Below are positions 4,794 through 27,619 of a stretch of 64,000 nt of DNA, piece after piece. The DNA lies in contig CAYRFI010000002.1 of the NCBI GenBank assembly GCA_964423595.1, positions 8,567 to 72,566 on the forward strand, in the 5' to 3' direction. The stretch is from an uncultured Thermoanaerobaculia bacterium. Its GTDB lineage: Bacteria; Acidobacteriota; Thermoanaerobaculia; Thermoanaerobaculales; Sulfomarinibacteraceae. The first letter of the stretch is position 1; the number at the start of each line of letters is the position of its first letter. A program made the translations under genes and the position numbers. The notes under the pieces were generated by a model, which searched no databases, was not told where the DNA came from, and saw nothing but the letters and a program-made list of their open reading frames with translations.

Positions 4794-6164
4794 TCAGCGC
4801 AATCCGAGCTTTTCGAGCTTGTCGTAAAGGGTGGAGCGCGAGATCCCGAGGATCTTCGCTGTGCGCTGGATGTTGGATTCCGTGATCTCGAGCACCCGCC
4901 GGATGTGTTCCTCCTCGATCTCGGCTAGGGATTTCGCATTCGTTTCGTCGATTGAACTTGACGAACGCAGCCCGCTCGGGAGGTGGGCCGGCATGATCCT
5001 GGTGCTTGTCCCCGCCCTGATCATCGCGGACTCGATCACGTTGCGAAGCTCGCGGGCATTCCCCGGCCATGAGTATCGGAGAAGAATCTCCTGCGCCTGC
5101 GGCGTAATGTCGGCGATCTCCCGCGTGACCAGAGGATTGAGGGCCCGCACGAAGTGCTGGGCGAGCTCGATGACGTCTTCACCCCGCTCCCGAAGCGGTG
5201 GGATATCGATCCGAAAGACCTCGAACCGATAGTACAGGTCGGCCCGAAAGCGTCCCTCGGCGACCTCGGTCGCGAGATCTCTATGCGAAGCAACGATGAA
5301 GCGCACGTCGGTCGTCAACTCGCGAACGCCTCCGACGCGCCGAAAGGTCCGGTTTTCGACGGCCTTCAGCAGCTTGCCCTGTGCCTGCGGTTGGAGTTCG
5401 GCGATTTCGTCCAAGAACACCGTTCCACCACTCGCGACCTCCAGCAAGCCCGGCTTGCGAATCGTCGCCCCGGTGAAGGCGCCCTTTTCGTGGCCAAAAA
5501 GCTCGGATTCGACCAGGGCCTCCGGCAGGCTGGCGCAGTTGACTTCGGTGAACGGCCCTGTCGCCCGCGGTGACAGGCCGTGGATACCTCGGGCAACGAT
5601 GTCCTTGCCGGTTCCCGTCTCCCCGTGCAAGACAACGGCGGATTCGGTACCCGCTACGGCGGCGACCTGCTCACGCACCCGTTTGATGACCTCGCTCGAG
5701 CCGATGAGCTCCGACAGGATTTGACCCTCTTCCGCTGCCCGCGACGCGTTGGCCTCCCTGTAGACCGACACCTTGCTGAGCGCCCGATGACGTTCGAGCG
5801 TCCGATCCACCGCCTTGGACAGAATCTCAAGCGTTACCGGTTTGGGTAGGAAATCATCAGCGCCACGCAGCATCGCTTCGACAACTGTTTGGATATCCGT
5901 CTGGCCGGTCAGCACCACCACCGATACCAGCTCGTCGCCGCCCTTCAGCCGGGGCAATAGATCGATGCCGTCCTCGTCCGGCAGCCCAAGGTCGAGCAGC
6001 ACGAGATCGATCGTACGCTCGGCGAGGAAGGCCTGCGCATCTGCGGAGGTCCTGACACTGTGCACCGTGTGGCCGTGACCCTGCAGCCAATCACAGAGGG
6101 CTGCGGAGGTGTCTGGATCGTCCTCGACGACGAGAATTCGACTTTCCGTTTGGGATGGCGCCAT
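4794..6164 (-). CDS. Sigma-54-dependent response regulator (NtrC family: REC-AAA+-Fis HTH)
   Basis: REC (ILVVEDDPD...LVLLDLGLPDEDG), Walker A GETGTGKD, sigma-54 contact loop EKGAFTGA, C-terminal HTH RTAKILGISRSTLYDKL. Start at ATG 6164. Confidence 0.9.
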   Translation of the reverse strand: MAPSQTESRILVVEDDPDTSAALCDWLQGHGHTVHSVRTSADAQAFLAERTIDLVLLDLGLPDEDGIDLLPRLKGGDELVSVVVLTGQTDIQTVVEAMLRGADDFLPKPVTLEILSKAVDRTLERHRALSKVSVYREANASRAAEEGQILSELIGSSEVIKRVREQVAAVAGTESAVVLHGETGTGKDIVARGIHGLSPRATGPFTEVNCASLPEALVESELFGHEKGAFTGATIRKPGLLEVASGGTVFLDEIAELQPQAQGKLLKAVENRTFRRVGGVRELTTDVRFIVASHRDLATEVAEGRFRADLYYRFEVFRIDIPPLRERGEDVIELAQHFVRALNPLVTREIADITPQAQEILLRYSWPGNARELRNVIESAMIRAGTSTRIMPAHLPSGLRSSSSIDETNAKSLAEIEEEHIRRVLEITESNIQRTAKILGISRSTLYDKLEKLGLR

Positions 6165-6350
6165 ATCGGTCTGATTGTACCGGAACCGCATGCAGCCCGG
6201 ACTTCGGACCAACGGGCACGATCTCTGGGAACGAATTCGCACGTATGTCCGATTCCCGGACGGCCCGGCTCGATCGCGCCCGCTGACCCGCGTCGTAGCG
6301 TTGGTGCAGGGCCTTTCGCGGGCAACGGCGACCTGCAGCCCCTGATTGCT

Positions 6351-6369
6351 GTGTCGTATTTCCGTACAC
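6351..6369. promoter_or_regulatory. Candidate enhancer (UAS) palindrome GTGTC-N9-TACAC
   Basis: GTGTCGTATTTCCGTACAC centred about 88 bp upstream of the GG of the 6447 sigma-54 promoter. A T9 tract (6411-6419) lies between them. Confidence 0.45.
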
Positions 6370-6446
6370 CCGTCGCCCGTCGACCTGCGACTCGTTCAAC
6401 GTCATAAACCTTTTTTTTTCAATTCATTACAGTCAGCCGGGCGACC

Positions 6447-6462
6447 TGGCATCAACCTTGCT
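6447..6462 (+). promoter_or_regulatory. Sigma-54 (-24/-12) promoter P1
   Basis: TGGCAT-CAACC-TTGCT with exact GG-N10-GC spacing. RBS GAGGAG 6475-6480 and ATG 6486 follow. Confidence 0.8.
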
Positions 6463-6485
6463 CTATCTGCCCGCGAGGAGGCCGA

Positions 6486-6905
6486 ATGAACTTCCGGCAC
6501 TGCACATCTCGATCGTCCCACCCCCTTGGCAAGGCCATCGTCGGTCTGTGCTCCCTTCTGGTGTGTCTTCTGATCTCCTCAGGCTCCGCATCGGCCGCAG
6601 ACGCCGGCGGTTCGGGTGGCTCGGTCTCCTATTCCATCCGCCTTGAGGTCGGGCTCTCCGGCCTCAATGGCGGGGGGTATGCCTCAATTGGAATGGAACA
6701 GAACGGCCCTGCCGTCGTCAGAGAGGTACTCGTTCCAAACCTCATAACCACGCTCGCCGATCGCTATCAGCGCCGGCAAGTGGAAGAAATCATCGCCAGT
6801 GTCGCGAATCAGTCTGTCGTCGTCATCGACGGCCAGGGGTTTGCGGTCAGCCCGTCCCAGGAAACCTGGGTGGCGTCGTCCGACGGAACGGTTCATTCGA
6901 TATGA
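6486..6905 (+). CDS. Small secreted protein, unknown function (first gene of sigma-54 cluster)
   Basis: Signal peptide ending SGSASA-AD, Gly-rich mature N-terminus. Preceded by RBS and sigma-54 promoter. Confidence 0.65.
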   Translation: MNFRHCTSRSSHPLGKAIVGLCSLLVCLLISSGSASAADAGGSGGSVSYSIRLEVGLSGLNGGGYASIGMEQNGPAVVREVLVPNLITTLADRYQRRQVEEIIASVANQSVVVIDGQGFAVSPSQETWVASSDGTVHSI

Positions 6906-7144
6906 CCGCGGAAAAGAAGGAGAATCCAGGTGTCAGAGGTCGGGAAACCGGTTTCCGGGGGCGTGTCCTCAAGGTTGGGTGGCACCAAACGGTGGCGCTC
7001 CCGGTTCATTGACTCCGGCTTCTGACTCCTGGGTTCTCGTTTTTCCGGCCCTCTCCACTCCCTCCCGGCGTCCGCCGGCGTTCGTTCTGCACCACAATGA
7101 TACAAAAGGTCCCGTCTCGGGCCTCTCAAACTCGATCCCAAAGT

Positions 7145-7160
7145 TGGCATGGCACTTGCT
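7145..7160 (+). promoter_or_regulatory. Sigma-54 (-24/-12) promoter P2
   Basis: TGGCAT-GGCAC-TTGCT with exact spacing. About 190 nt upstream of ATG 7353, which implies a long leader. Confidence 0.75.
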
Positions 7161-7352
7161 GCTTTGTTGGGCGTGAGATGAGCGACGTGTGATTCGTCGA
7201 GCGCCGTGCCCGGGTTCAACGCCACCCTCCGAATCCGGACACGCAACCCTTCGAATCGGGCCGCCCAGCACGCACTCCATCTCATATCGGAAGTTCACCG
7301 GCCTGACAACGGCCACACGACAATCGGAAAACAGAGAAAAGGAGTACGAACA

Positions 7353-7955
7353 ATGAAAAAGTGTCTCATCGCCAGTTTGATCATCATGGGTGCTGCCCTG
7401 GTAGCACCGGGAACGGCGTCAGCGCAAGCTCAAGGATCCACTGACATCGACATCTCGCTGCCAGACATCGTGATCCTCCACTACTTCAGCAACGTGGACA
7501 TTGCGATCACCCAGTCCGCCCTCGGCACCTTTTTGACCGGGGCGGCCGGCAATGCGGCCGTTGACGAAGGCAGTGCATCGCCCGCGGCCGGAGGATTCAC
7601 GCAGAACGTCGCCCTCGCACCAACGGCCCTGAGCGGCGATCCGTCCAGCGCTCTGCTCACGATTCGTAACGCGTGGGCGGTCCGCTCGATCTCGCTCGCC
7701 GGCGGGACCGACACGCAGCTCGTGATCACCAACACCGACAACACGCTCGACCACACCTCGACAGCAGCTTCGATCACGGTCACCAACGTCGCCGTGGACG
7801 ACGGCTCCAGCAACGGTTCGACGATCACTTTCCCGGCACCCGGCCTGGTGAGCCCCCGGATGGGAGATGTCGAGCTCACGCTCGACCTCACCGCCGCGGT
7901 CAACGCCGGTGACTACCTCGACGGCGAGTACACCCTTACAGCGTCGAATATCTGA
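7353..7955 (+). CDS. Secreted fibre-subunit-like protein (SCPU/DUF4402-like C-terminal strand)
   Basis: RBS AAAGGAG 7338-7344, signal peptide MKKCLIASLIIMGAALVAPGTASA. Alternating hydrophobic N-terminus DIDISLPDIVILHY. C-terminus AGDYLDGEYTLTASNI. Confidence 0.6.
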   Translation: MKKCLIASLIIMGAALVAPGTASAQAQGSTDIDISLPDIVILHYFSNVDIAITQSALGTFLTGAAGNAAVDEGSASPAAGGFTQNVALAPTALSGDPSSALLTIRNAWAVRSISLAGGTDTQLVITNTDNTLDHTSTAASITVTNVAVDDGSSNGSTITFPAPGLVSPRMGDVELTLDLTAAVNAGDYLDGEYTLTASNI

Positions 7956-7972
7956 AAACCCGACACGAGGCA

Positions 7973-8004
7973 GACGGTCTGGCGCCACACGGCGCCAGAC
8001 CGTC
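7973..8004 (+). promoter_or_regulatory. Perfect 14-bp stem-loop between subunit genes (attenuator or mRNA stabiliser candidate)
   Basis: GACGGTCTGGCGCC-ACAC-GGCGCCAGACCGTC with every position paired. No T-tract downstream. Confidence 0.7.
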
Positions 8005-8035
8005 GCGGCCACTCGGATCGAGCGAGGGACCCATC

Positions 8036-8620
8036 ATGAATAACCGTCTCACACTCTGCCTTCTGAGCCTGATCATCCTGGCATCCGTCCAGGCGTCGGC
8101 GGGGAATGGCGGCGGTCAGTCGGGCAAGAGTTCCGACTGGGACGAATTCGCTCAGGAGTCGAAGTTCACCTGGAAGCACCACATCAATCTGAAACGAATC
8201 ACCGCCGACGAACTCACCGGCTCCGCGACATCCCGGGGCAACTCATCTTCGCTCGCAATCGCAACAACGAACGGCTACGGTGTCACCCCGTCACTCGACC
8301 TCGGATCCATCTCCGGTACAGTCGTCCGAATCGTTCAATCCCTGTGGCGACTGCGTGTGCCCTCACCGGCCTCCGGCGATGATCTCGACATTTACTACGA
8401 GGTTGTCGGCCTCAACGGCCATCGCGGCTGCTTCAGTCACGAGGACCAACCGGAATCGGAAATCTCAGTCACCGTCCATCCTGCGGTCCCATTCGTGAGC
8501 GAACGGGGTCAGCACTGGTCCTTCATCGAAGGCGACGTGGTGTTGCACCTCGACATCAACAGCGCCCAGACGGCCGGCAGGTACAGCGGAACGATGACCA
8601 TCACCGTCCACCAGCTCTGA
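8036..8620 (+). CDS. Second secreted fibre-subunit-like protein
   Basis: Signal peptide MNNRLTLCLLSLIILASVQASA. C-terminus AGRYSGTMTITVHQL matches the same G-x-Y-x-G-x-x-T-h-T-h motif. Confidence 0.55.
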   Translation: MNNRLTLCLLSLIILASVQASAGNGGGQSGKSSDWDEFAQESKFTWKHHINLKRITADELTGSATSRGNSSSLAIATTNGYGVTPSLDLGSISGTVVRIVQSLWRLRVPSPASGDDLDIYYEVVGLNGHRGCFSHEDQPESEISVTVHPAVPFVSERGQHWSFIEGDVVLHLDINSAQTAGRYSGTMTITVHQL

Positions 8621-8651
8621 TCGCCGGCACAGCTCCTCTGGAAGGAAACAC

Positions 8652-9575
8652 ATGACTCGCATCAGCAACATTCTGCTCATTTCAGCCTTGATATTCGGGC
8701 ACGTCGCGTCGGCGCAGACGGTCACGGAAACCGCTTCACCGCCCGCCCAAATCGCGGTCAGCCCCTCCAAGTTCGAGGTCGTCATCGGCCCGAAACCTGC
8801 AGTCGAGTCGCTCCGGGTGTTCAACATGAGCTCCGACCCAGTCACCGTCTTGGTGAATGTGGCGACCTGGGATCTCGACGAAGACAGCAGAGTCCGGATT
8901 GTCGAACCCACCGAGCAGAGTCTTGACCAGTGGTTGGTCATCAACCCCCTCCAGTTCACGGTTGGGGGTGGCGAGTCGCAGGCGGTCCGATTCTCCATCA
9001 GACCGCGCGTCCAACCCGATCCGGGCGAACACCGGGCGATGATCTACCTGACCCAGCAGCCCCAGGAAGACACATCCGCGCCGGTCACGGTGCGCTTTCG
9101 GCTCGGGGTCGCCATATACGGCTATGTCGGTGACATCCGCCGGGTGGGGACGCTTCACGGAGTCACGATCGGTGAAGGATCGAACCCGATCAGCGCCGCG
9201 TTTGACATCGCCAGCGATGGAAACGCGCACATCCGTCTCCGTGGTCAGTACGCCGTGTGGCCGGCCGCAACCTACCCCGGGTGGGAGCGCACCGACGAAA
9301 TCCCCAAGCTCGAGCTCCCGAAAACCGTTGTCTCCGAACCGATCGTCGACGCGGGTTTTCTTCCGACGACTCCGGTGCTGGCCGGCACTCGCCGCGAGAT
9401 CGTCCTCCACATCGGAAAAACGCTGCCGCCCGGGAACTACGTGCTCGACCTCAACGGGCGCCTGGGTGACACCAGCGTCGATCGCGGCCTGCCCTTCACC
9501 GTGGCGCCGGTCCCACCCGCCGCCAACCCCCTCAGTGATGCACCGAAGGCCGTGGTTGAGAAATCACCTGAATGA
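8652..9575 (+). CDS. Periplasmic PapD-like chaperone candidate
   Basis: Signal peptide, then beta-rich pattern ISPSKFEVVIGP...LRVFNMSSDPVTVLVNV...LVINPLQFTVGGGESQAVRFSIRP. A second beta-rich lobe follows. ATGA overlap with the next gene. Confidence 0.5.
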   Translation: MTRISNILLISALIFGHVASAQTVTETASPPAQIAVSPSKFEVVIGPKPAVESLRVFNMSSDPVTVLVNVATWDLDEDSRVRIVEPTEQSLDQWLVINPLQFTVGGGESQAVRFSIRPRVQPDPGEHRAMIYLTQQPQEDTSAPVTVRFRLGVAIYGYVGDIRRVGTLHGVTIGEGSNPISAAFDIASDGNAHIRLRGQYAVWPAATYPGWERTDEIPKLELPKTVVSEPIVDAGFLPTTPVLAGTRREIVLHIGKTLPPGNYVLDLNGRLGDTSVDRGLPFTVAPVPPAANPLSDAPKAVVEKSPE

Positions 9576-12262
9576 CCCTATGCCTGCCGATCCGCTCGAG
9601 GCGCAACGGTCATTCTGCCGCGGGCTCGGCGTCTCGTCCCATGAGACCGCCGTGGTCGGCGTTGGCGCTAGCAGCGGTCCTTGCGACGACCTTAACCGCC
9701 GCCGCCGGCGGCGAAGTGCTCGCGATTGCCGCATCGGCCGCCGCCGCGGATCGAGCAACGGGCGCCATCGATATCGCGAGCACATCCGAGTGGGACAGGA
9801 TCTACCCAGAGAACACCATGATCGTCGGTGTGATCATCAACGGTATCGAGGCCGGGAATCTCGAGGTCATCCCTGACGGAGAACTCTTCATCATTCCCCT
9901 GAAGGCATTCGCCGAGATATCCGGGTGCAGCGTGGAGCTTTCCGACGGGTCGGTCCTGCTCGTAACGCCGCTCGGAGCGGTGGAGCTCACGCCGGACGAT
10001 CTGGTCGAGATTCGAGGAACCATCTACGTCACCGAGGAGGCAATCGAAACGAAGCTGGCTACGCCGGTGGAGTTCGACAGCAGCGAGTTCGCCCTTGTTT
10101 TTGATCTCCCGTGGCGCCGCAATCACGGCGAAGGCTCCAAGCTCGACACGGTGACCGTCGCTCCCGAGGCTACACCACCCGCCGCCAGCATTTCGACCTT
10201 GCGCTCGGACATTTTCTTCACCGATCTCGATGACCGCAGCTTCTACTCGACTTCGACTGTCGCGGATGGCCGTCTCGCGGGCGGGCGCTGGAGGATCCGT
10301 TACCTCGATGACCTCGCAGGTGGGCAGACGCTGCGGGAATATGCATGGCTCCGCACCTTTGACCGCAATCTGATGTTCATCGGACAGCAGACCCTCAACC
10401 TACACCCTGTCCTCCAGTCGTTCGAACTCACCGGCTATCAGCATGCATGGACAAATCAACCCCTCGATCTCTATTACGTCTCTCCTGAGCCGCGCGAGCT
10501 CCTCCCGCGGCGTCTTCAGCCTTCGATGTCATTCCGAGGGCCGGGACCGCCCGGAGGGTGGGCGGACCTTCAGATCGACGGCATCTTCATCTCCCGCCAG
10601 CCCATCGGTCTGGACGGGACCTATGAGTTCCTGGACGTACCTTTGGTGACACGGCAGCTCAGCACCATCGACGTCTACGTGTACGACCGTCACAACCCAG
10701 CCGTGCCGGTCGCGATTCATCAGCAGACCCAACCAATCTCGGAGTACATGCTCGGCCGGGGAGCGATCGTCCATATGGGCGGCATTGGCCGCGGCGGCAA
10801 TTTTTTCCAGGATCTCATCGACCAACGGCTGGATTCCGAGTTCGCCGGTTTCTACCAGTGGCGGTGGGGTATGACGGACAACCTGACTCTGGAGGCCGCG
10901 GCGCAGGAGGATGCGGGCCATCGTCAGGTCATGGGGGGCTTCGTCGCGCGCCTTTTCGGCAACACCGTCGTGTCGCTTGGCGCCGGCGTCGCCAATGGTC
11001 GCGCAATCGGCTACGATCTGAACCTCGAGCACTATCAGGCACGGAGGAGGATCCTTGCACGGTCGCAGATCTTCCAGCCCGGCTACCGGAGCGACGGTTC
11101 GCTCGCCAGCCACGACCACTATCTCGAAATCGGGTACGCTCCCCATCGCAACCTGGATGTGTCCTTGATCGGACGCAGCCGCGGCATCGGTCCAGACGAG
11201 GTGGACTACATCCTCCCGGCCCTCTCCTGGTGGCCCGACTCACGTCTGTCGTTGCGGGCGCGGCCGGACGCCCTCGGCGACTATCGATTCGACCTCTTCT
11301 ACCGGTTCGGGCGAACCGCGCGGTTGACAGTCAGTCACCAGGACAGGACGTTTACCGACCTCAGCGTCGCCACCGGCCGGAGAACCCGGCTTTCCCTCGG
11401 CGGGGAACACGGTGGAGGGGCGGCGGACCAATACCATGCCATCCTGAGTTGGAACGGCAAGGGGCGCCGGCAGCCGAGCTTCAATGCCGGCCTCTTGTGG
11501 GCTCACGGCAAGCCGGGGTTCCGGACCGGCGGCCAAGTCACCCTGGCGCCGGGGATTCTCGGGCGGATTGATGTGGAGAGCGATCCGGCGACGTTCGCCA
11601 CCATCGGCCGGCGAAGCACCAGGTTGGTCATTGGCGCTAACGTCGATCTCGCGTTCGCGCGTGGGCGCGTGGTCCCTGCCGGGTCATTCTCGCAGCGCGG
11701 CGATCGGGGTGCGATCGCCGGAAAGGTGATGGTCGACGCACCGATCGGCTTTACGAGCTATCGCCTCAACGACCTGGTGGTTCTCGTCAACGGCCAACCG
11801 GCAGGCCGAACAGTCTTCGGCGGGACCTACTTCATCGGCGGCCTCCAGCCCGGGATCTACAGGGTGACGTTGGACACCGAGAACCTGCCTCTCGAGCTCG
11901 TGCCGGTCGACGCCACGGTCGTCGTTGAGGTTGCCGCATCGGCGGTAACCAGCGGAGACCTCAGGGTCCGGCCCGAGTTCGGCATCGCCGGCAGATTGGT
12001 GGACGCCGCCGACCGCGCGGTCGCCGGCGCGCTGCTCGAGATCATCGACGGCAACGGATCGCGGGTCGGCGTGACCTCAACCGACCAATTCGGACTGTAT
12101 CGCTTCGATGGGCTCGGAATCGGTGCTTACTCCGTTCGCCCGGTGGCGGGCTCCTTTCCGGAGCGGGAGGCGGCGCTGCCGTCGATCGACGTCGAGATCA
12201 CCAATGATTTCCTATTCGGCCAGGATCTTCAACTCCCCTTTGAGCCGGCTGCCCAACAGTAA
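9572..12262 (+). CDS. Outer-membrane usher-like protein with C-terminal CarboxypepD_reg-like domains
   Basis: Usher-N-like IVGVIINGIEAGNLEVIPDGELFIIPLKAFAEISG. Plug-like ADLQIDGIFISRQPIGLDGTYEFLDVPL...IDVYVYD. Long beta-strand-like middle section. C-terminal GIYRVTLD and GLYRFDGLGIGAYSV. The signal peptide may start at the internal Met (9641). Confidence 0.5.
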   Translation: MTLCLPIRSRRNGHSAAGSASRPMRPPWSALALAAVLATTLTAAAGGEVLAIAASAAAADRATGAIDIASTSEWDRIYPENTMIVGVIINGIEAGNLEVIPDGELFIIPLKAFAEISGCSVELSDGSVLLVTPLGAVELTPDDLVEIRGTIYVTEEAIETKLATPVEFDSSEFALVFDLPWRRNHGEGSKLDTVTVAPEATPPAASISTLRSDIFFTDLDDRSFYSTSTVADGRLAGGRWRIRYLDDLAGGQTLREYAWLRTFDRNLMFIGQQTLNLHPVLQSFELTGYQHAWTNQPLDLYYVSPEPRELLPRRLQPSMSFRGPGPPGGWADLQIDGIFISRQPIGLDGTYEFLDVPLVTRQLSTIDVYVYDRHNPAVPVAIHQQTQPISEYMLGRGAIVHMGGIGRGGNFFQDLIDQRLDSEFAGFYQWRWGMTDNLTLEAAAQEDAGHRQVMGGFVARLFGNTVVSLGAGVANGRAIGYDLNLEHYQARRRILARSQIFQPGYRSDGSLASHDHYLEIGYAPHRNLDVSLIGRSRGIGPDEVDYILPALSWWPDSRLSLRARPDALGDYRFDLFYRFGRTARLTVSHQDRTFTDLSVATGRRTRLSLGGEHGGGAADQYHAILSWNGKGRRQPSFNAGLLWAHGKPGFRTGGQVTLAPGILGRIDVESDPATFATIGRRSTRLVIGANVDLAFARGRVVPAGSFSQRGDRGAIAGKVMVDAPIGFTSYRLNDLVVLVNGQPAGRTVFGGTYFIGGLQPGIYRVTLDTENLPLELVPVDATVVVEVAASAVTSGDLRVRPEFGIAGRLVDAADRAVAGALLEIIDGNGSRVGVTSTDQFGLYRFDGLGIGAYSVRPVAGSFPEREAALPSIDVEITNDFLFGQDLQLPFEPAAQQ

Positions 12263-12478
12263 CCACGCGGTCGAAGGCGGCGCTGGCCGCCCTGGTCCCG
12301 GCCACCCTCCATCCCGCATATCTCCGACTTTCTGGTGCGGCCGCGGGGCCGGCGCGATACGCGGGCTGTCTCTTGTTTCCATGTCTGATATCCGGACACA
12401 CCGGCGAGCGCAGGAAATTCCCTCGCAGGTTCCCTTTTCATGCGGGTTTTCGTCCGGACGGCACCGCTGACTCACTCC

Positions 12479-12501
12479 GAGTGTCCTGATTCCAGACACT
12501 C
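12479..12501. promoter_or_regulatory. Candidate enhancer (UAS) palindrome GAGTGTC-N9-GACACTC
   Basis: Perfect 7-bp inverted arms. The core GTGTCCTGATTCCAGACAC is centred about 87 bp upstream of the GG of the 12576 promoter, the same geometry as 6351-6369. Confidence 0.5.
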
Positions 12502-12575
12502 TTCGAGATCCTTGTCGTTTTTAGGACTGAACCATAAAGCATTCATATCCTTATATTTAACGATTCTCGCAAAGT

Positions 12576-12591
12576 TGGCATCGTTGTTGCT
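12576..12591 (+). promoter_or_regulatory. Sigma-54 (-24/-12) promoter P3
   Basis: TGGCAT-CGTTG-TTGCT with exact spacing. RBS AAGGAGG 12607-12613 and ATG 12619 follow. Confidence 0.8.
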
Positions 12592-12618
12592 CTAGTCCTC
12601 AGCAGTAAGGAGGCCGCC

Positions 12619-13053
12619 ATGAAACGCTTCGTCGCCCTTTTCGCCCTGATCGCCCTCGTAACCCTGTCCGCCTGCTCGTCCGCTTCGTGGCTCTCCCGCG
12701 AGGAACAAGCCTGGAATAACTACCAGGAACGGCACGGTCTGAAACAGGGTGACGCCCTGTCGCCGGATGACTGGGATGCCCTGCTCCGCTGTGCCCGCCT
12801 GTACGCGGTCAACAAGACACCGACCATCTCCGAGATCCAGAAGACCGCGGAGTGGATCGCTCTGTATCACCACTGGGGCACCTTCCACGAGCGCCTCGAG
12901 ATGCTGGAAAAGCCGATCACAACCGCCGATCGTCTCTACCTCGCAGAACTGGCAGTGGCGATCTCATCGCGTCTCACGACCGACCCCGGCAGCGCCCATC
13001 TCGCCGATCAGCCGGTGCGCAGTGCAGCCATGACTGAACTCATCTCCGACTGA
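12619..13053 (+). CDS. Lipoprotein, unknown function (last gene of sigma-54 cluster)
   Basis: Lipobox LVTLSAC after a hydrophobic signal. 144 aa. Confidence 0.65.
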   Translation: MKRFVALFALIALVTLSACSSASWLSREEQAWNNYQERHGLKQGDALSPDDWDALLRCARLYAVNKTPTISEIQKTAEWIALYHHWGTFHERLEMLEKPITTADRLYLAELAVAISSRLTTDPGSAHLADQPVRSAAMTELISD

Positions 13054-13073
13054 TTTTCAGCGAACCCGTCAGG

Positions 13074-13105
13074 GCCGCGGCTCATCCCCTCGGGGAGGCC
13101 GCGGC
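13074..13105. terminator. GC-rich stem-loop between convergent genes
   Basis: GCCGCGGC ... GCCGCGGC 8-bp stem enclosing an inner CCCC-TC-GGGG stem. No clear T-tract. Confidence 0.4.
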
Positions 13106-13159
13106 TTCGTCGTCTCCAGCTCCCCTTCGAGGCGAGGTCGTGCGGTCGCCCGCCTCCGT

Positions 13160-14056
13160 TCAAACCACAACGGGCGGCGGCGACAGCGGCAACAGGACCT
13201 CGATGCACAACCCACCGTCGCCGGCCGTATAGCCGGTTATCTGACCACCGAGACCGTGGACGATCTCGACGGCGTTTCCCGGGAGGTCCGCTCCACGCGG
13301 CAACTCCTCAGTGCGGTCGCCTCCGCGATCGCTCGCCCGATTGATCAAGTCCTCGGCATCCTCCCCTACGGCCCACGCCACCGCGAGTAACAGGCACGAA
13401 CCGGCGATACCAGGGCCGGATCGGTCGCCACCCTCGATATCCGTCACGTTGAGGGTCACCGACAGAAGGCCTCCTCCCTCTGTGAGGGTCGTCGCAGCGC
13501 AGTCGAGCAGGGACATGACCAACTGATAGGCCTTGATAGGATCCACGACGATGGCGGGAGCGCTGGCGGTCACGTTTTGGCGCACCTTCACGTTGTCGCC
13601 GAGCGACGCTCTGGCCAGCTTGACGCCTTCCTTGACCACGGGGTGCAGTGGGATGGGCGGTGGCCCACCGCCTGCGCTGCGGGCGGCATACAGGACCATC
13701 GCGGTGAGATCCTTCGCGCGGTCCACCGCTTCATCGATTGACCTGAGCCTGGCTTGCATCGGATCCCCGTCCCCCAGGTTGAGGCGCGCCAGCTCGGCTG
13801 ATCCTCTGATAACAAACAGGAGATTGTTGATCTCGTGGGCCACTGCGGCCGCGAGGTGGCCGATGATGACCATCGAACCGACGTCGCTCCCACGGGCCGC
13901 CGAGGCCTCCTCCCAGGCTTCCAACACCCGGCGTAGATCTGCAACCGCCGCGAGGGCCTCATCGACGCCGGCGCCTCCACTCGCCTTCAGCGCTGCAACG
14001 GCGGTGTCCACCCGCGCCAGAGGCTGCCTCCATCCGTCGTGCTTCGAGACCATCAC
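13160..14056 (-). CDS. Histidine-kinase-like protein with intact DHp His box but degenerate ATPase domain
   Basis: H-box IIGHLAAAVAHEINNLLFVIRGSAEL. The C-terminal region is HATPase-like in length and pattern, but I cannot find N-box Asn or DxGxG boxes. Start overlaps the upstream stop (GTGATG). Confidence 0.7.
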   Translation of the reverse strand: MMVSKHDGWRQPLARVDTAVAALKASGGAGVDEALAAVADLRRVLEAWEEASAARGSDVGSMVIIGHLAAAVAHEINNLLFVIRGSAELARLNLGDGDPMQARLRSIDEAVDRAKDLTAMVLYAARSAGGGPPPIPLHPVVKEGVKLARASLGDNVKVRQNVTASAPAIVVDPIKAYQLVMSLLDCAATTLTEGGGLLSVTLNVTDIEGGDRSGPGIAGSCLLLAVAWAVGEDAEDLINRASDRGGDRTEELPRGADLPGNAVEIVHGLGGQITGYTAGDGGLCIEVLLPLSPPPVVV

Positions 14057-16755
14057 TCCCCCGTTGACGCCAGCGCCTGGCGAACGGCGCCGGCGAGCTG
14101 CGCCACCGTGAAGGGTTTGGCGATGAACGACGTTCTCTCGGCCGTCTCCAACAGGTCCCGGAGCGCCTCGTCCGTGTAGCCGGAAGAGAACAGAAAGGCG
14201 AGCCGTGGCTTCTTCGCGCGAACGCGTTCCATCAGCTCACGCCCGCCGATCGACGGCATCACGACATCACTGATCACGAGGTCGATCTCGACGTCTTGCC
14301 GCAACACCTCGAGGGCTTGCCTCCCGTTCGTGGCCTCGATCACCGCGTATCCGAGCGCCTCGAGCATGCCGACAATCGCTGATCGGACCGCCTGCTCGTC
14401 CTCCACCACAAGGATTGTCTCATCGCCACCTTCGGCCTCCCTGTCCCCCGAGTCGCTCTTTTTGCGGACCGGCCCGGTCGCAACGGGGATGAAGACATCA
14501 AACCTGGTACCCTCCCCGGGAGAGCTCCGAACGTCAATGAACCCCCCGTGCTGTTTGACGATGCCATAAACGGTCGCCAACCCCATTCCGGTGCCTTTTT
14601 CCTTGTCTTTGGTCGTGTAGAACGGTTCGAAGACATGGGTCAGGGTCGTTGCATCCATGCCAGAACCGTCATCCTCAACCGAAACGCAAACATAGGTTCC
14701 ATCCGCTACACCGGGTCGGCCCAACCCGGATTCCTCGACGAACACCCGCTCCTCGACTCCAATCTCGATCTTTCCGCCCTCAGGCATCGCATCGCGAGCA
14801 TTCACGACCATGTTCAGAAGAACCTGGCCCAGCTGTCCGCGGTCGGCGCGAACGGTCGGCACGCTTTCCCCATCCCGAAGCGTGAGCTCGATGTTCTCCG
14901 GTATCACCCGGCGAAGGATCTCAAGCTCATCCGTCAACAGCGCCTTGAGGTCCAGCGCCTGCATCTCGAGAAGCTGCTGGCGCGCGATCGCCAACAGGTG
15001 TCGGGTCAGCTCCGCTCCGCGTTTGACGGTTTCGCGGATCACCTTGAACTCGCCAAGCTCTTCGCCGGCCTGGGGATAGCAGAGCCGCAGCAGTTCGGCC
15101 GAGCCCGAAATCGACATCAAAAGGTTGTTGAAGTCGTGAGCGATCCCGCCGGCGAGCTGGCCCAGCGCCTCGAGCTTCTGCACCTGCGCCAACTGTTGTT
15201 CCAGCCTCCGTCGCTCGCTGATGTCGATCAAGCTGCCCTCGATGATCGACGGATGGCCGCGATCGTCTTCGATCAGGCTCGCGCTCAGGACAACGGTCAG
15301 CGGCTCACCGTCCCGCCGCCTCATCGGAACCTCCCAGCCAATCACCGATCCGTTGTTGGCAAGCTCGTCGAGGAACCGCTGCCGATCCTCGGGCGACCCA
15401 TAGAGGAGAGTGACTTCGACGCCCAGGACCTCCTCCGGCGAGCCGAAACCGAACATTTTCGCCACCGCCATGTTGCAGCTCAGGAGCCGCCCGTCGATGG
15501 TCGAGCGAAACACGCCGGCGACGTTTCGTTCGAAGAGCTGGCGGTACCGCTCCTCACTCGCCGCCAGTGCCGACTCCGCCTTCTTGCGTTCGGTGATGTC
15601 GGTCAGGGCTCCGACGATCGAGACGGTCCTGCCGTCCTCCACCATCGGGGCCTCGCGAACTTCGACCCACACCAAACGGCCGGTTTTAGACCGCAGCTCG
15701 AGCTCGTACGGCGGCTGCCGCTCACCGGTGGCTATGGCTGTCCGGGTGAGCTCGTAACCACGTTCATTGAGCGGATTGTCGGTCAAGAAATCGATCCAGT
15801 TTCTCATCGCCTCCTCGGGCTCGCAGTCGAGGATCTCGCGACATTGCGGACTCAGGTAAGTCAGCACGTTGTCTGCGCCGTGCGAGTAGAAGAGATTGGT
15901 GCTGTGTTCGACGATGTTCCGCAAGCGCTCCTCGCTCTCCCGCACCGCATCCTCGGCGAGCCGTGCTTCCGTGATGTCCTGGGCGACGCCGACCACCTGC
16001 TGAATCTCGCCGGCGTCATTTGCGACGGCAAAGCCCCGATCGCGGATCAGCCGCACTCGGCCGTCCGGACGCACGATCCGGTACTCCTCGGCATAGGCAC
16101 CGGACTCCGCCAGTCGAGCGAAGGCCTCGTTTGTGCACCGCCGGTCGTCCGGATGGACGTACATGACCCAGCCCGACGGATTCTCGTACAGATCTTGGGG
16201 GTCGAGACCCCACACCCGTTCATACGCCGGGCTGGCGTAGACGACCATGCGAGTCTTCCAGTCGACCACCCAAAACACATCGTCGAGGGTCTCGAACAAT
16301 CGACGGTAGGTGCGATCACTGCGGCGCAGCGCAGCCTCGGCCTCAGCTAGCCGGTTTTCGGTCCCGACCTCGGTCAGAACCCACCGAACGGTCCTGGGGA
16401 GGCCGCCCAGCAGGCCTTCGTCTTTGACGATGTAGTCTCTGGCGCCGAGCCGCATCATCTCGACCGCCACGCGCTCGTCACCGTGAGCGGTCATGACGAT
16501 GAACGCCGGAAGGTCTCCACGTCGGTCGAGAGCCCCGATGATGTCACGCCCATTCTCCTCCCCGAGAATGAGATCGAGCACCATCAGGGAGGGGGCGCTC
16601 TCGGCGACCGCATCGAGGGCCGACGCCACCGAATGGACGGCCGCAACGCGGTAGCCTTCAAGCTCCAGTCTCATGCTCACGAGCCCGGCGAGGTCCTCGT
16701 CGTCCTCCACCACGAGAACGAGTGGCGTGATGCCGGCCGGGTCGTTCTCACGCAT
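14053..16755 (-). CDS. Hybrid sensor kinase (REC - 3x PAS - HisKA - HATPase - REC)
   Basis: N-terminal REC LVLVVEDDEDL...LMVLDLIL, PAS repeats, H-box GGIAHDFNNLLMSISGSAELL, G-boxes DDGSGM and GTGMGLATVYG, C-terminal REC ILVVEDEQAV...DLVISDVVMPSIGG. Start at ATG 16755. Confidence 0.9.
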   Translation of the reverse strand: MRENDPAGITPLVLVVEDDEDLAGLVSMRLELEGYRVAAVHSVASALDAVAESAPSLMVLDLILGEENGRDIIGALDRRGDLPAFIVMTAHGDERVAVEMMRLGARDYIVKDEGLLGGLPRTVRWVLTEVGTENRLAEAEAALRRSDRTYRRLFETLDDVFWVVDWKTRMVVYASPAYERVWGLDPQDLYENPSGWVMYVHPDDRRCTNEAFARLAESGAYAEEYRIVRPDGRVRLIRDRGFAVANDAGEIQQVVGVAQDITEARLAEDAVRESEERLRNIVEHSTNLFYSHGADNVLTYLSPQCREILDCEPEEAMRNWIDFLTDNPLNERGYELTRTAIATGERQPPYELELRSKTGRLVWVEVREAPMVEDGRTVSIVGALTDITERKKAESALAASEERYRQLFERNVAGVFRSTIDGRLLSCNMAVAKMFGFGSPEEVLGVEVTLLYGSPEDRQRFLDELANNGSVIGWEVPMRRRDGEPLTVVLSASLIEDDRGHPSIIEGSLIDISERRRLEQQLAQVQKLEALGQLAGGIAHDFNNLLMSISGSAELLRLCYPQAGEELGEFKVIRETVKRGAELTRHLLAIARQQLLEMQALDLKALLTDELEILRRVIPENIELTLRDGESVPTVRADRGQLGQVLLNMVVNARDAMPEGGKIEIGVEERVFVEESGLGRPGVADGTYVCVSVEDDGSGMDATTLTHVFEPFYTTKDKEKGTGMGLATVYGIVKQHGGFIDVRSSPGEGTRFDVFIPVATGPVRKKSDSGDREAEGGDETILVVEDEQAVRSAIVGMLEALGYAVIEATNGRQALEVLRQDVEIDLVISDVVMPSIGGRELMERVRAKKPRLAFLFSSGYTDEALRDLLETAERTSFIAKPFTVAQLAGAVRQALASTGE

Positions 16756-17109
16756 TGCCCTGCCGGCCGTTCGAAATGTCCCGTACGCCCAAATCGGGTC
16801 GAACCGACCACAAGCGGCCGCCGCTCCGAGCGAATATTCCGGAACGCTCCGATGTCTCGCGACGGTCCCCTGCCTGGGATTCGGTCGCAACCATCAGCAC
16901 CAACGCCTCCCTCGGTTGTCGGCCCGGTGGAAAGGTCATCACAGCCAGGTGCTCGAGATCCTCGCCCGGGCGCCAACGTCCATCCCGAAATCGAGGTTAC
17001 CACAATCGTGTTCGGACTCTTCTCAGTCCTTGAAGCCAATTCGGCGGTGTTAACGGGACACCTGATTGGTCGAAAGGAGGCTTTTGGTAAACTTGAAACG
17101 AGGTTCGGA

Positions 17110-18099
17110 ATGGCTGATTGCATCGGAAAAGTGCTGGCGATCGATGACGACCCGGCGGTTCTCGAAACACTCGCCGGCACTCTCGGCCAGCTCGGTTACG
17201 ACGTGTTGCAGAGCACAGAAGGGATCGAGGGCTATCGTCTCGCGGTCAAACACCGGCCGGATGTCATCCTTCTTGATGTCGTGATGCCGGACGCGGACGG
17301 CTTCGAAGTCTGCCACATGCTCAAGGACAACCCGGACACGGCGCTCATACCGGTAGTGTTTCTGACCGGCCACGGCTCGCGGGAGGCGAGGATCAACGGC
17401 CTTGACGTCGGCGCCACCGATTTCCTGGGCAAACCGAGCGACCTGGCGGAGCTCGAGGCCCGGGTGCGGAACCTCGTGGCATTTCGCCGCCTGACCCTCG
17501 ATTTTATCTCGGCCGAGGAAATGATCTTTACCTTCGCCAAGCTGATGGAGGCGCGCGACCGCGATACAGGCGACCACTGCGCACGCCTTGCCGAGCTGAG
17601 CGTCGAACTTGGCCAGAGGCTCGGACTCGTGGAGGACGATCTCAAGGCATTAAACCGTGGCGGCTACCTGCACGACATCGGCAAAATCGGCATTCCCGAC
17701 GCGGTCCTCCTCAAGCCTGCACAGCTCGAGCCCGAGGATTGGGCGATCGTCAAGCGCCACCCGGAGATCGGATACGAGATATGCCGGCCGATGAGCAGCT
17801 TCGAGCCGGTTCTACCCCTGATCCGTCACCACCACGAGCGGCAAGACGGCTCGGGTTATCCGGACGGGCTCGCGGGCGACCGAGTCCCGTTGATCGCACG
17901 AGTGTTTCAGGTCGTCGACATCTTCGACTCCCTGGTCAACACACGACCGTACCGAGAGGCGATGCCCGCAACCCAGGCGATCGAGATCCTTCGCGATGAG
18001 ACAAGGCGCGGCTATTGGGACGAGGTGATCGTCGAGGAGTTCGTGGCCATGATCTCCGAGAGCGAGCAACTGTCGCATGCCGACGCGGATGCGGTGTGA
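17110..18099 (+). CDS. Response regulator with HD-GYP domain (c-di-GMP phosphodiesterase type)
   Basis: REC VLAIDDDPAV...VILLDVVMPDADG, then HD (YLHDIGKIGIPD) and HHHERQDGSGYPDGL. The tracked ORF from 16483 is an antisense-derived extension. Confidence 0.85.
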   Translation: MADCIGKVLAIDDDPAVLETLAGTLGQLGYDVLQSTEGIEGYRLAVKHRPDVILLDVVMPDADGFEVCHMLKDNPDTALIPVVFLTGHGSREARINGLDVGATDFLGKPSDLAELEARVRNLVAFRRLTLDFISAEEMIFTFAKLMEARDRDTGDHCARLAELSVELGQRLGLVEDDLKALNRGGYLHDIGKIGIPDAVLLKPAQLEPEDWAIVKRHPEIGYEICRPMSSFEPVLPLIRHHHERQDGSGYPDGLAGDRVPLIARVFQVVDIFDSLVNTRPYREAMPATQAIEILRDETRRGYWDEVIVEEFVAMISESEQLSHADADAV

Positions 18100-18117
18100 C
18101 GTCCCCTCCCCTTTGTG

Positions 18118-18144
18118 AACGGGGTCTGTGGTTCTGACCCCGTT
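18118..18144 (+). terminator. Stem-loop between convergent genes
   Basis: AACGGGGTC-N9-GACCCCGTT followed by TCC. Short T run only. Confidence 0.45.
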
Positions 18145-18161
18145 TCCTGGCGACTGGACGA

Positions 18162-18557
18162 CTACTCGCTCAGGAGTTCTCCGATCTGTTGTAGCAGGTC
18201 GTCGAACTCGAAAGGCTTGTAGACCACCCTGTCGGGCTGTGCAAAGTCGCTGAACAACTGCTCCCGATCTGGCTCGTCGGAGAGGTCTCGAGCTGTAAAG
18301 AGGATGATCCTGTTGCGGCGCTCATAAACTCCCGCCGCCTCGTCCTCGCGAATCGCTCGCGCCACTCGGTACCCATTCTCACCGGGAAGCATGACATCGA
18401 GGAGAACTAGGTCGGGTCGGGAAATCCGCACCGCGCCAAGGCCCTCGAGCCCGTTCGCAGCGGTCAGCACCTCGTACCCCGCCCTCTCCAAGGCCACCCG
18501 GGTCGTGGTGAGGATGTCCGGGTCGTCGTCAACCACCAAGATCGTCGCCTTCGTCAT
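18162..18557 (-). CDS. Single-domain (CheY-like) response regulator
   Basis: ILVVDDDPDIL...LVLLDVMLPGENG...KPF. ATGA overlap with the upstream kinase. Start at ATG 18557. Confidence 0.85.
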   Translation of the reverse strand: MTKATILVVDDDPDILTTTRVALERAGYEVLTAANGLEGLGAVRISRPDLVLLDVMLPGENGYRVARAIREDEAAGVYERRNRIILFTARDLSDEPDREQLFSDFAQPDRVVYKPFEFDDLLQQIGELLSE

Positions 18558-20668: not shown

Positions 20669-20805
20669 CTGCGACAGCCCTCTTCCGTTTCAGGATGTCT
20701 TGCGAGCGTCACCCTCAACTGCAACCCCCGATTTATCCGCCTCCCGGAATGACAACCGTCTCACAATAGTAGCGCGCCCGGAGCCGCGCGCGATCCAGAC
20801 GGAGA

Positions 20806-21219
20806 ATGGCTGTCATGGTTGATCCGGAACGGGGTATCATGGATCGTATGTCAGAGGGAAAGCAGAAGGAGAGCGGATTGATTACCACCGAGAAACATGA
20901 CGAGGTGACGGTGGTGGCGGTTGGCGCAGATCTCGATGCCCATCGGTCACAAAAGGCCAAGGACCTGCTGGGTGAGATCATCAAAGGCGGAACCGTCAGA
21001 CTTGTCGTAGATCTGTCATCGGTGGCGTTCGTCGACTCCGCAGGCCTCGGCGCGCTGGTGTCAGCACTCAAAAGCGTTCGGCCGTCAGGCGGAGACGTGA
21101 GGATATGCGGCGCGCGGCCCGAGGTCACCACTGTTTTCGAGCTCACCCGGATGACGAAGATCTTTCGGATTTTCCCCGACCGTGAGTCGGCCCTCGCGAG
21201 CTTTCGGACCGACCGGTGA
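20806..21219 (+). CDS. STAS-domain anti-sigma-factor antagonist (SpoIIAA/RsbV-like)
   Basis: VVDLSSVAFVDSAGLGALVSA with the phosphorylatable Ser context DSAGLG. Start ambiguous (20806, 20839 or 20848). Confidence 0.8.
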   Translation: MAVMVDPERGIMDRMSEGKQKESGLITTEKHDEVTVVAVGADLDAHRSQKAKDLLGEIIKGGTVRLVVDLSSVAFVDSAGLGALVSALKSVRPSGGDVRICGARPEVTTVFELTRMTKIFRIFPDRESALASFRTDR

Positions 21220-21222
21220 TGG

Positions 21223-22797: not shown

Positions 22798-23168
22798 CGG
22801 ATTCAAAAACGGTGGTGGTGATTGATGACTCGCCGAGCATCCGCGAAACCATCGCCTTCATTCTCCAGAGCGAGGGCTTCGAGGTCTACACTGCAGTCAA
22901 CGGTCGCGAGGGACTCGAGCTCGTACGCTCTGTTCGCCCGCGGGCAGTGCTTCTCGACGCGATGATGCCCGAGATGGATGGATTCGATGTGTGCCGGCAG
23001 ATCCGCGGGGATGGCGAACTCGCCTCGACACAGGTCATCATGTTGACGACAATGGGCATGGAGGTCGACCGCGAGCGTGCACTCAACGCCGGAGTCAATC
23101 ACTTCCTCACCAAGCCTTTCGACGACGAACAGGTGCTGGAGCTGCTCGACGAAGCGTTCGCCGACTAG
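22794..23168 (+). CDS. Single-domain response regulator
   Basis: VVVIDDSPSIRE...VLLDAMMPEMDG...TKPF. ATGA overlap with the phosphatase gene. Confidence 0.85.
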   Translation: MTDSKTVVVIDDSPSIRETIAFILQSEGFEVYTAVNGREGLELVRSVRPRAVLLDAMMPEMDGFDVCRQIRGDGELASTQVIMLTTMGMEVDRERALNAGVNHFLTKPFDDEQVLELLDEAFAD

Positions 23169-24575: not shown

Positions 24576-24602
24576 TATAGCCCGTACGGATCATAAAGCT
24601 CG

Positions 24603-27455: not shown

Positions 27456-27619
27456 CCTGTGTCTTCCGACCCATGCTACGTCAATCCCCAGGGGTTCACA
27501 ACAAACGTTCGAGTCATTCACTCCCACGCTCCGGCCAGCGAGATCGCGGGAATTGACGCCGCACCAGCGCAATGACAGAGTAGAGACCATCGAAATATCC
27601 GGAAATCGCCTTTCTGGCC

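Follow-up and report, generated by a model that had tools for sequence, protein, structure and literature searches.

We suggest that three sigma-54 (RpoN) promoters, here called P1, P2 and P3, are very probably functional and head three separate transcription units of one small regulon in an uncultured Thermoanaerobaculia bacterium. They lie in a stretch of 64,000 nucleotides of contig CAYRFI010000002.1, which we call the window; its DNA occurs in salt-marsh metagenomes. P1 precedes g1, a gene for a small secreted protein, P3 precedes g6, a gene for a small lipoprotein, and P2 precedes a block of four genes that, on the evidence of predicted structures, encodes a chaperone-usher pilus. The gene of an enhancer-binding protein of the NtrC family, the presumed activator, is adjacent to P1 and divergent from it. 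The evidence consists of the form and position of the three promoter elements, their conservation in related loci, and conserved inverted repeats found upstream of them.

The three promoter elements

The elements and their invariant dinucleotides are located as follows.

6447-6462, plus strand: P1 sigma-54 element, TGGCATCAACCTTGCT; GG at 6448-6449, GC at 6460-6461; predicted transcription start about 6473
7145-7160, plus strand: P2 sigma-54 element, TGGCATGGCACTTGCT; GG at 7146-7147, GC at 7158-7159; predicted transcription start 7170-7172
12576-12591, plus strand: P3 sigma-54 element, TGGCATCGTTGTTGCT; GG at 12577-12578, GC at 12589-12590; predicted transcription start about 12602

An earlier note on this DNA had pointed out these three 16-mers, and they are found exactly where it placed them, all on the plus strand and each with precisely 10 nt between GG and GC. 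The halves it described as common to all three, TGGCAT and TTGCT, hold as well: the pattern TGGCAT-N5-TTGCT has exactly three matches on both strands of the window, compared with 0.02 expected after dinucleotide shuffling, and none of 100 shuffles reached three. Measured against the extended consensus YTGGCACG-N4-TTGCW, the sites score 14.0-14.6 of a possible 15.3, the single departure being T for C after TGGCA; the best extended consensus is that of P2 (AAAGTTGGCATGG). A position weight matrix trained on 19 sites from other genomes, with the window sequence excluded, ranks the same three sites at the top of the window (P3 29.8, P2 27.5 and P1 22.1 bits). The fourth-ranked match reaches 11.6 bits, and the maximum over 30 locally shuffled windows was 18.0 bits.

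All three elements lie in non-coding DNA and have the orientation of the genes downstream. From GC to ATG there are 24 nt at P1, 28 nt at P3 and 193 nt at P2. The very short leaders noted before for P1 and P3 are borne out: the element ends 23 nt (P1) and 27 nt (P3) from the ATG, and if transcription starts about 12 nt past the -12 C, as we assume for all leader lengths, the predicted leaders are about 13 and 17 nt. P2 was likewise correctly described as lying about 190 nt before the ATG at 7353 and producing a long leader, for which we predict about 182 nt.

The earlier note had also found no other intergenic site of this quality, and we agree. The only additional consensus-grade match, ATGGCACGCGCGTTGCG at 27659-27675, coincides with the ATG and initial codons of the gene for a 1002-residue hybrid histidine kinase and is thus not intergenic. 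We rejected it as a promoter. Its score with the independent matrix is low, below the eight best listed matches, and it is probably a chance match to the sigma-54 consensus.

One possibility raised by the note did not hold, namely that the TGGCAT variant might be specific to this cluster. Of the 19 orthologous sites, 10 have C and 9 have T directly after TGGCA, so that orthologues use the two bases about equally. The near-identity of the three sites reflects the consensus and not a recent duplication. The preceding T, G, G, C and A and the G and C of the -12 element are invariant in all 19.

Conservation in related loci

A word-based search with the usher, the last protein encoded in the P2 operon, gave 21 relatives, the nearest named one from a Thermoanaerobaculales genome bin. 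When this protein alone was used for a locus search, GTDB genomes gave no relative, and a profile-based scan of those genomes gave 110 loci. These 110 belong to Thermoanaerobaculia, other Acidobacteriota, Holophagae, Vecturithrix, UASB270, Gemmatimonadota and some Proteobacteria, and, contrary to expectation, dozens of them to heterocystous cyanobacteria. Designations such as L001 stand for related loci below. The block of two subunits, chaperone and usher is conserved throughout the loci.

In L001 (76% usher identity) all three sites are present at orthologous places; the P3 orthologue there is TTGGCACGGCTATTGCT, located before the g6 orthologue. P1 and P2 are both found in L089, whose gene order is the same and whose subunit is 75% identical. 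Loci L002, L012 and L087 have a P1-type site before g1 and a P2-type site before the subunit gene even though the activator-g1 module is elsewhere in the locus. Altogether, P1 orthologues precede the g1 homologues of L001, L002, L003, L012, L087, L089 and L090, and in four loci the distance from GC to ATG is 24-26 nt. GG and GC are kept at orthologous positions while spacer and flanks diverge.

The most widely conserved of the three is P2. With a minimum score of 13.2 (of 15.3) and a range of 400 nt ahead of the subunit gene (background 0.045 sites per kb), it is present in 13 of 21 distinct non-cyanobacterial loci that have a clear subunit homologue. A TGGCA-type site ahead of the first subunit gene was absent from all 33 cyanobacterial loci. 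Cyanobacteria lack sigma-54 (PMC3162934).

We take these data, together with the form of the elements, to support the view that P1, P2 and P3 are real, evolutionarily conserved sigma-54 promoters, their start sites and dependence on sigma-54 being predictions.

As a separate observation, a different motif, CTGGAAC-N5-ATGCT, recurs about 230-290 nt upstream of the first subunit-like open reading frame (ORF) in five Nostocales loci (L027 at 6573, L030 at 6612, L037 at 6621, L069 at 3572 and L073 at 6735). Further copies, outside the five loci with a measured distance, are at 6533 in L031 and 3767 in L084. This motif is no sigma-54 element.

The activator gene and its candidate partners

4794-6164, minus strand: enhancer-binding protein of 456 amino acids, divergent from P1; Response_reg, Sigma54_activat, AAA_lid_14 and HTH_8 domains
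13160-16890, minus strand: two sensor-kinase genes, for a 298-residue HisKA protein and a 945-residue REC-PAS-HisKA-HATPase-REC hybrid (Pfam, NCBIfam)

The presence of a divergent NtrC-family activator gene next to P1, as first noted, is well founded. Its product has the REC-AAA+-HTH_8 architecture, with Pfam matches that all pass their cut-offs (Response_reg 4.8e-23, Sigma54_activat 5.9e-63, HTH_8 3.2e-11), and its GAFTGA motif is intact. We treat it as a generic member of the family because it stays under every NCBIfam equivalog cut-off. An orthologue is paired with a g1 homologue in L001, L002, L012 and L087 (phmmer), and in L089 and L090 it adjoins a called gene for 136 or 147 amino acids; g1 homologues always adjoin an activator orthologue.

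The two sensor kinases are candidate partners of the activator, a link suggested by proximity. Both genes are syntenic in L001. The cluster lies in a dense signalling neighbourhood (13160-30628) with a HisKA protein, several PAS hybrid kinases, and an HD-domain response regulator and single-domain receivers (by synteny with L001); a PilB/GspE-type ATPase is encoded at about 25671-27450. The neighbourhood is partly syntenic in L001 and L002.

Putative operators and A/T-rich tracts

Alignment of the P1 region of four loci revealed two conserved blocks, which were refined with L012 and L087. The operator of the activator is likely the resulting inverted repeat, TGTCCG-N5-CGGACA. Perfect dyads occur in L087 (TGTCCGGAATCCGGACA) and L012 (TGTCCGGATTCCGGACA). 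In the window, the following sites precede P1 and P3; here and below, operator distances run upstream from the -24 GG to the centre of the site. The two P1 operators are putative upstream activating sequences (UAS), and consensus in the last two lines means that of integration host factor (IHF), WATCAANNNNTTR.

6246-6262, unstranded: distal P1 operator (putative UAS), TGTCCGATTCCCGGACG; 1 mismatch to the dyad; 194 bp
6352-6368, unstranded: proximal P1 operator (putative UAS), TGTCGTATTTCCGTACA; 3 mismatches; 88 bp
12382-12398, unstranded: distal P3 operator (putative), TGTCTGATATCCGGACA; 1 mismatch; 187 bp
12482-12498, unstranded: proximal P3 operator (putative), TGTCCTGATTCCAGACA; 2 mismatches; 87 bp
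6417-6429, plus strand: IHF-like site before P1, TTTCAATTCATTA; 1 mismatch to the consensus
12535-12547, minus strand: IHF-like site before P3, TATGAATGCTTTA; 1 mismatch to the consensus

In L001 and L002 the distal P1 operator has the aligned counterparts GTCCGATTTCCGGAC and GTGCGATTTCCGAAC, respectively, and the proximal one stands out as conserved when the same two loci are aligned with the window. At P3, the distal operator is kept in L001 as TGTCTGAAATCCAGACA at an identical distance, and the proximal one aligns there with GTGTAGTGATTTCAAACAC; in the scan of L001 only the distal P3 site passes. The dyads of related loci are positioned as follows.

L001, P1: proximal 88 bp, distal 191 bp
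L002, P1: proximal 87 bp, distal 191 bp
L012, P1: proximal 88 bp, distal 191 bp
L087, P1: proximal 85 bp, distal 186 bp
L089, P1: proximal not found by the scan, distal 190 bp
L090, P1: proximal not found by the scan, distal 187 bp
L002, P2: proximal 147 bp, distal 223 bp
L012, P2: proximal 148 bp, distal 225 bp

With up to 2 mismatches allowed, three of the four dyad matches in the 64-kb window fall in the intergenic regions before P1 and P3. Three other candidates were discarded. Firstly, an initial UAS pattern, GTCCGRWWYCCGGAC, was not enriched at 3 mismatches. Secondly, a half-operator in the P2 leader (7225-7241, CCGAATCCGGACA) is not conserved in L001. Thirdly, conserved blocks upstream of P2 (about 6925-6945 and 7010-7031), considered as degenerate operators, are the arms of the terminator-like hairpin of g1.

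Between proximal operator and promoter, promoters of the P1/P3 class contain a tract in which A+T makes up 73-90% of 30 nt, the genomes having 30-39% A+T, and most have a match to the IHF consensus with 0-1 mismatch. At P1 of the window the tract is 80% A+T over 30 nt and starts 46 nt upstream of GG, in a locus of 38% A+T overall; at P3 it is 77% A+T over 30 nt and starts 47 nt upstream. The IHF-like feature is also present at P1 of L001 and L002 (perfect matches) and of L012. Neither feature occurs in the P2 class. The promoters thus form two architectural classes, P1 and P3 with paired operators and an A/T-rich tract, and P2 of the window without either.

Proposed regulation and its alternatives

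In the mechanism we propose, a nearby sensor kinase would phosphorylate the activator, which would then bind TGTCCG-N5-CGGACA as dimers. At P1 and P3 it would occupy two dyads about 88 and 190 bp upstream of GG, which are roughly ten helical turns apart. Bending of the DNA at the A/T-rich, IHF-like tract might bring the activator into contact with the closed complex of sigma-54 RNA polymerase and so allow the open complex to form. From P1 a transcript of g1 would result, ending at a long hairpin with a run of U. Transcription from P2 would yield the leader of about 182 nt followed by major subunit, attenuating hairpin, second subunit, chaperone and usher, and that from P3 would yield g6. P2 of the window would use the P1 operator pair, 790-890 bp upstream of it, as a shared enhancer. 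Start sites, sigma-54 dependence, binding to the dyads, DNA bending, sharing of the enhancer and identity of the kinase are all elements that we infer from the sequence.

Enhancers of the NtrC type can act over kilobases. We favour sharing of the P1 enhancer pair over a second activator as the most likely arrangement for P2, because the loci without P2 dyads (the window, L001 and L089) have P1 dyads less than 0.9 kb upstream. L002 and L012, both with a remote activator module, have a dyad pair at P2 itself.

A number of observations weigh against the proposed regulon. No ORF with an RpoN box was found in the window or in the first seven loci, and that the genome has rpoN is presumed from the activator gene. 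The proximal P1 operator departs from the dyad at three positions. Over the whole window, dyads with up to 2 mismatches are not enriched (4 compared with 5.6 expected); since the count alone is not above expectation, the support for the operators comes from their position and conservation. The IHF consensus is an enterobacterial one, from another phylum. In the window, L001 and L089, the 240 bp upstream of P2 contain no dyad that departs from the repeat at fewer than 3 positions, and a clear dyad is likewise missing at P2 of L087, where the activator-g1 module is about 11 kb distant. Finally, sigma-54 control of the pilus operon is not universal, as the subunit gene of two close relatives, L003 and L090, lacks a sigma-54 site upstream; in L003 (61% identical) a sigma-70-like TTGACT-N17-TAGACT replaces P2.

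The missing P2 dyads could be taken at face value. P1 and P3 would then answer to the adjacent activator, and P2, itself a sigma-54 promoter, to another enhancer-binding protein or through an unrecognised site that is not a dyad. The lack of an A/T-rich tract at P2, its different leader architecture and the many P2-type loci that have no activator orthologue within 10 kb would all fit such a division. However, the P2 dyad pairs of L002 and L012 tie P2 to the same activator family, and the three loci without P2 dyads are precisely those in which P1 dyads are available at short distance on the same DNA. L087 fits neither this explanation nor enhancer sharing. On balance, we regard separate control of P2 as unlikely, though still a serious alternative.

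Far less probable, in our opinion, is that one or more of the three sites are chance matches or decayed relics and that the genes run from unrecognised promoters of the sigma-70 type. The subunit gene of L003 and L090 does manage without a sigma-54 site, and our scan of 6000-13300, in which no sigma-70-like promoter was detected, is weak evidence because promoters of Acidobacteriota are poorly known. Against this stand the expectation of 0.02 matches, the fact that all three sites beat every shuffle with the independent matrix, the retention of GG and GC in diverging DNA, the conserved GC-to-ATG distance at P1, and the conserved operator geometry. That the shared 16-mer is the site of another DNA-binding protein or a dispersed repeat is hardly credible, given that invariant TGGCA and GC, a fixed 10-nt distance between GG and GC and a free spacer are the sigma-54 pattern, that the three copies have unrelated flanks except for AAAGT, which belongs to the extended consensus, that a cognate activator gene is adjacent, and that the motif is absent from orthologous cyanobacterial loci.

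The P1 and P3 units

6486-6905, plus strand: g1, ORF for a secreted protein of 139 amino acids with a GAGGAGG ribosome-binding site; sole gene of the P1 unit
6909-7047, plus strand: long hairpin of about 140 nt directly past the g1 stop codon; inner stem followed by GUUUUU
12619-13053, plus strand: g6, ORF for a predicted lipoprotein of 144 amino acids (LSAC lipobox) with an AAGGAGG ribosome-binding site; sole gene of the P3 unit

No Pfam or NCBIfam match was obtained for g1 or g6, and a homologue of g6 was found only in L001. The hairpin after g1 has a minimum free energy (MFE) of -78.6 kcal/mol (z-score -5.7), and none of 200 shuffles folds as well. L001 and L089 retain the structure, in which 8 pairs show compensatory changes of both bases. 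The hairpin probably serves as an intrinsic terminator of unusual length and would insulate the P1 unit from P2. Because this terminator-like hairpin separates g1 from P2, the pilus operon would need a promoter of its own.

Two observations concern the same region of relatives. In L089, low-complexity repeats resembling CTTCGTA and CTCCTGT occupy 2385-2490, between the g1 terminator and P2; the window sequence there is unrelated. In the P1-type leader of L003, CCTCC-CCTTC-GGAGG would fold into a hairpin and sequester the ribosome-binding site; this leader and the sigma-70-like sequence before the subunit gene of L003 account for the regions at about 2290-2330 and 7840-7880.

The P2 transcript

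7170-7352, plus strand: P2 leader, about 182 nt (predicted), with GGCGUGA at the predicted +1
7973-8004, plus strand: perfect 14-bp hairpin with a tetraloop, 18 nt past the stop codon of the major-subunit gene; MFE -44.3 kcal/mol, z-score -5.3

The GGCGUGA at the start of the leader forms the 5' strand of a predicted terminal hairpin (about 7170-7205). The corresponding GGCGTGA is kept at the predicted +1 of P2-type promoters in L001, L002, L004, L009, L022 and L089; it may act in transcript stability or as initial transcribed sequence. Terminal hairpins with differing partner strands are predicted in several loci, with modest z-scores of -1.2 to -4.7. The P2 leader as a whole is not unusually structured (z-score -0.72), and an Rfam scan of 6000-13200 with E-values up to 1 gave no match. 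We do not propose a riboswitch in the leader; the consensus fold of five sequences is weak (-4.2 kcal/mol).

Hairpins equivalent to that at 7973-8004, with other stem sequences, follow the subunit gene in L001, L002 and L003 (z-scores -4.5 to -5.9). The hairpin of the window is probably an intra-operon attenuator or a 3' stabiliser that would set the ratio of subunit to assembly proteins. In the pap operon, a hairpin after the major-subunit gene accompanies a stabilised subunit message and reduced read-through. By analogy, leader and post-subunit hairpins would fit an abundant, stabilised subunit message and less read-through into the assembly genes.

A predicted chaperone-usher operon behind P2

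7353-7955, plus strand: predicted major pilus subunit, 200 amino acids, with a signal peptide; first gene of the subunit-subunit-chaperone-usher block
8036-8620, plus strand: second subunit, 194 amino acids; a distant paralogue of the major subunit, kept in most loci
8652-9575, plus strand: periplasmic chaperone, 307 amino acids; assigned by Foldseek comparison of an AlphaFold model with a mean predicted local distance difference test (pLDDT) score of 90.7
9572-12262, plus strand: outer-membrane usher, 896 amino acids, with a C-terminal CarboxypepD_reg domain; AlphaFold model with pLDDT 76.7

Sequence models reveal little about these genes. The family of the major subunit comprises 113 proteins, none of them named and none with a Pfam domain. 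Its conserved motifs are NAWAVR and a C-terminal YTLTA, and past the signal peptide there is an N-terminal beta-strand-like segment, visible as a sequence pattern only. The profile of the major subunit matches the second subunit at 6.3e-5; the second subunit itself has a weak DUF4402 match (E-value 0.0032), below the cut-off. The chaperone reaches 16.5 bits with PapD_N, the Pfam cut-off being 23, and some of its homologues carry PF00345 and are named fimbrial chaperone. The usher has no match to the Pfam Usher family (PF00577), and no fimbrial or SCPU model matches the cluster.

Profile searches of subunit, chaperone and usher against the PDB gave nothing except the C-terminal CarboxypepD_reg domain of the usher. 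Because sequence searches against solved structures were of no use, structures were predicted and compared. The best match of the usher model in Foldseek is FimD (3rfz_B, E-value 2.7e-27 over 894 columns, i.e. the full length), followed by PapC. The chaperone model matches CfaA (8.2e-11), CsuC, Caf1M and FimC, with E-values of 1e-10 to 1e-8 and a probability of 1.0 in all cases. Since the predicted usher and chaperone match these folds, the P2 operon is, as modelled, a chaperone-usher pilus system that standard sequence models have missed. The label of main subunit, which the earlier note had given to the first gene, accordingly draws support from the predicted structures of its neighbours and has no Pfam match behind it.

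Two further observations concern the surroundings of the pilus cluster in other loci. A gene pair with faint to clear P_proprotein/PD40 and CLIPPER matches recurs beside it (L002 14999-18684, L003 1-2045, L004 12935-16497 and L090 6235-9472). In L088, a long contig, the chaperone/usher region (10001-14824) is broken into several short ORFs, which could mean a decayed cluster or frameshifts introduced by long-read assembly; no activator gene or sigma-54 site is nearby, and the upstream region is very A/T-rich.

Comparison with known systems

The link between sigma-54 and pili is an established general theme (PMC3162934). The closest parallels and the differences can be drawn for several groups of systems. 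Firstly, PilS-PilR and sigma-54 control pilA, the type IV pilin gene, in Pseudomonas aeruginosa, Myxococcus xanthus and Geobacter. As there, the gene of a filament's major subunit lies behind a -24/-12 promoter, a dedicated NtrC-family response regulator is present, and the upstream sites contain TGTC. In contrast, the pilus here is of the chaperone-usher and not of the type IV kind, the operator is a 17-bp inverted repeat instead of tandem repeats, two accessory genes own their promoters, and the activator passes no equivalog model.

Secondly, glnAp2 is activated by NtrC, and nifH and Pu are sigma-54 promoters assisted by IHF. The putative paired dyad enhancers 100-200 bp upstream, the possible action at a distance and, at P1 and P3, the presumably bendable A/T-rich IHF-like segment between enhancer and promoter all have counterparts in these promoters. 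The operator differs (TGTCCG-N5-CGGACA compared with TGCACC-N5-GGTGCA), as do the very short leaders of about 13-17 nt at P1 and P3, and in comparison with nifH and Pu the case for IHF here consists in sequence resemblance to the enterobacterial consensus.

Thirdly, the gene order of subunit or subunits, chaperone and usher is that of FimC/FimD, PapD/PapC, the archaic Csu and the alternate CFA/I systems, and the hairpin past the major-subunit gene has its counterpart in pap. Unlike in classical chaperone-usher systems, sequence models fail here and the usher has a CarboxypepD_reg domain at its C-terminus.

The usher family of the window is abundant in heterocystous cyanobacteria, where together with chaperone and subunits it is widespread in Nostoc, Calothrix, Anabaena, Rivularia and relatives (L013, L017-L084). 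Cyanobacterial chaperone-usher-like clusters have been defined by PF05229, PF00345 and PF00577 (CccS/CccP, Slr0019; PMC4390875), and the cluster of the window, unlike these, has no match to any of the three. The tubular-pilus cluster of Microcystis contains glycosyltransferase and methyltransferase genes and a different pilin (PMC12397347); the subunit profile of the window found no PDB chain. After comparison, we set aside both the Microcystis tubular pilus and the SCPU-type cyanobacterial clusters as different systems. In the titles and abstracts of the literature searched, we found no description of a chaperone-usher operon with sigma-54 promoters and an enhancer-binding protein of its own, or of this pilus family.

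Implications

The promoters are of a well-known kind and the regulatory logic is ordinary, so that understanding of the sigma-54 mechanism is unchanged by our findings; it is the pilus family that is poorly known. As a wider and tentative proposal, which may well need revision, the family would be a deeply divergent, undescribed chaperone-usher clade, present in Acidobacteriota, a few other phyla and many heterocystous cyanobacteria. Its acidobacterial members would be under a dedicated sigma-54 regulon with the operator TGTCCG-N5-CGGACA, in which one enhancer pair might serve both P1 and P2 when the activator module adjoins the operon, and P2 might have its own pair when the module is elsewhere.

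The unrecognised clade, together with the patchy, lineage-dependent type of its promoter, is the more interesting by-product of the analysis. A gene annotated merely as "carboxypeptidase regulatory-like domain protein" is, according to its predicted structure, an usher. With the usher so identified, its neighbours would form a pilus system that sequence annotation has missed in Acidobacteriota and Nostocales. Upstream of the subunit gene, most loci have a sigma-54 site, L003 has a sigma-70-like promoter and the cyanobacteria have no site of the sigma-54 type, and this promoter swap among close relatives represents a small natural experiment in regulatory turnover. For an uncultured, Thermoanaerobaculia-like bacterium of salt marshes, the predicted promoters, operator, hairpins and candidate sensor together provide a regulatory map that can be tested.

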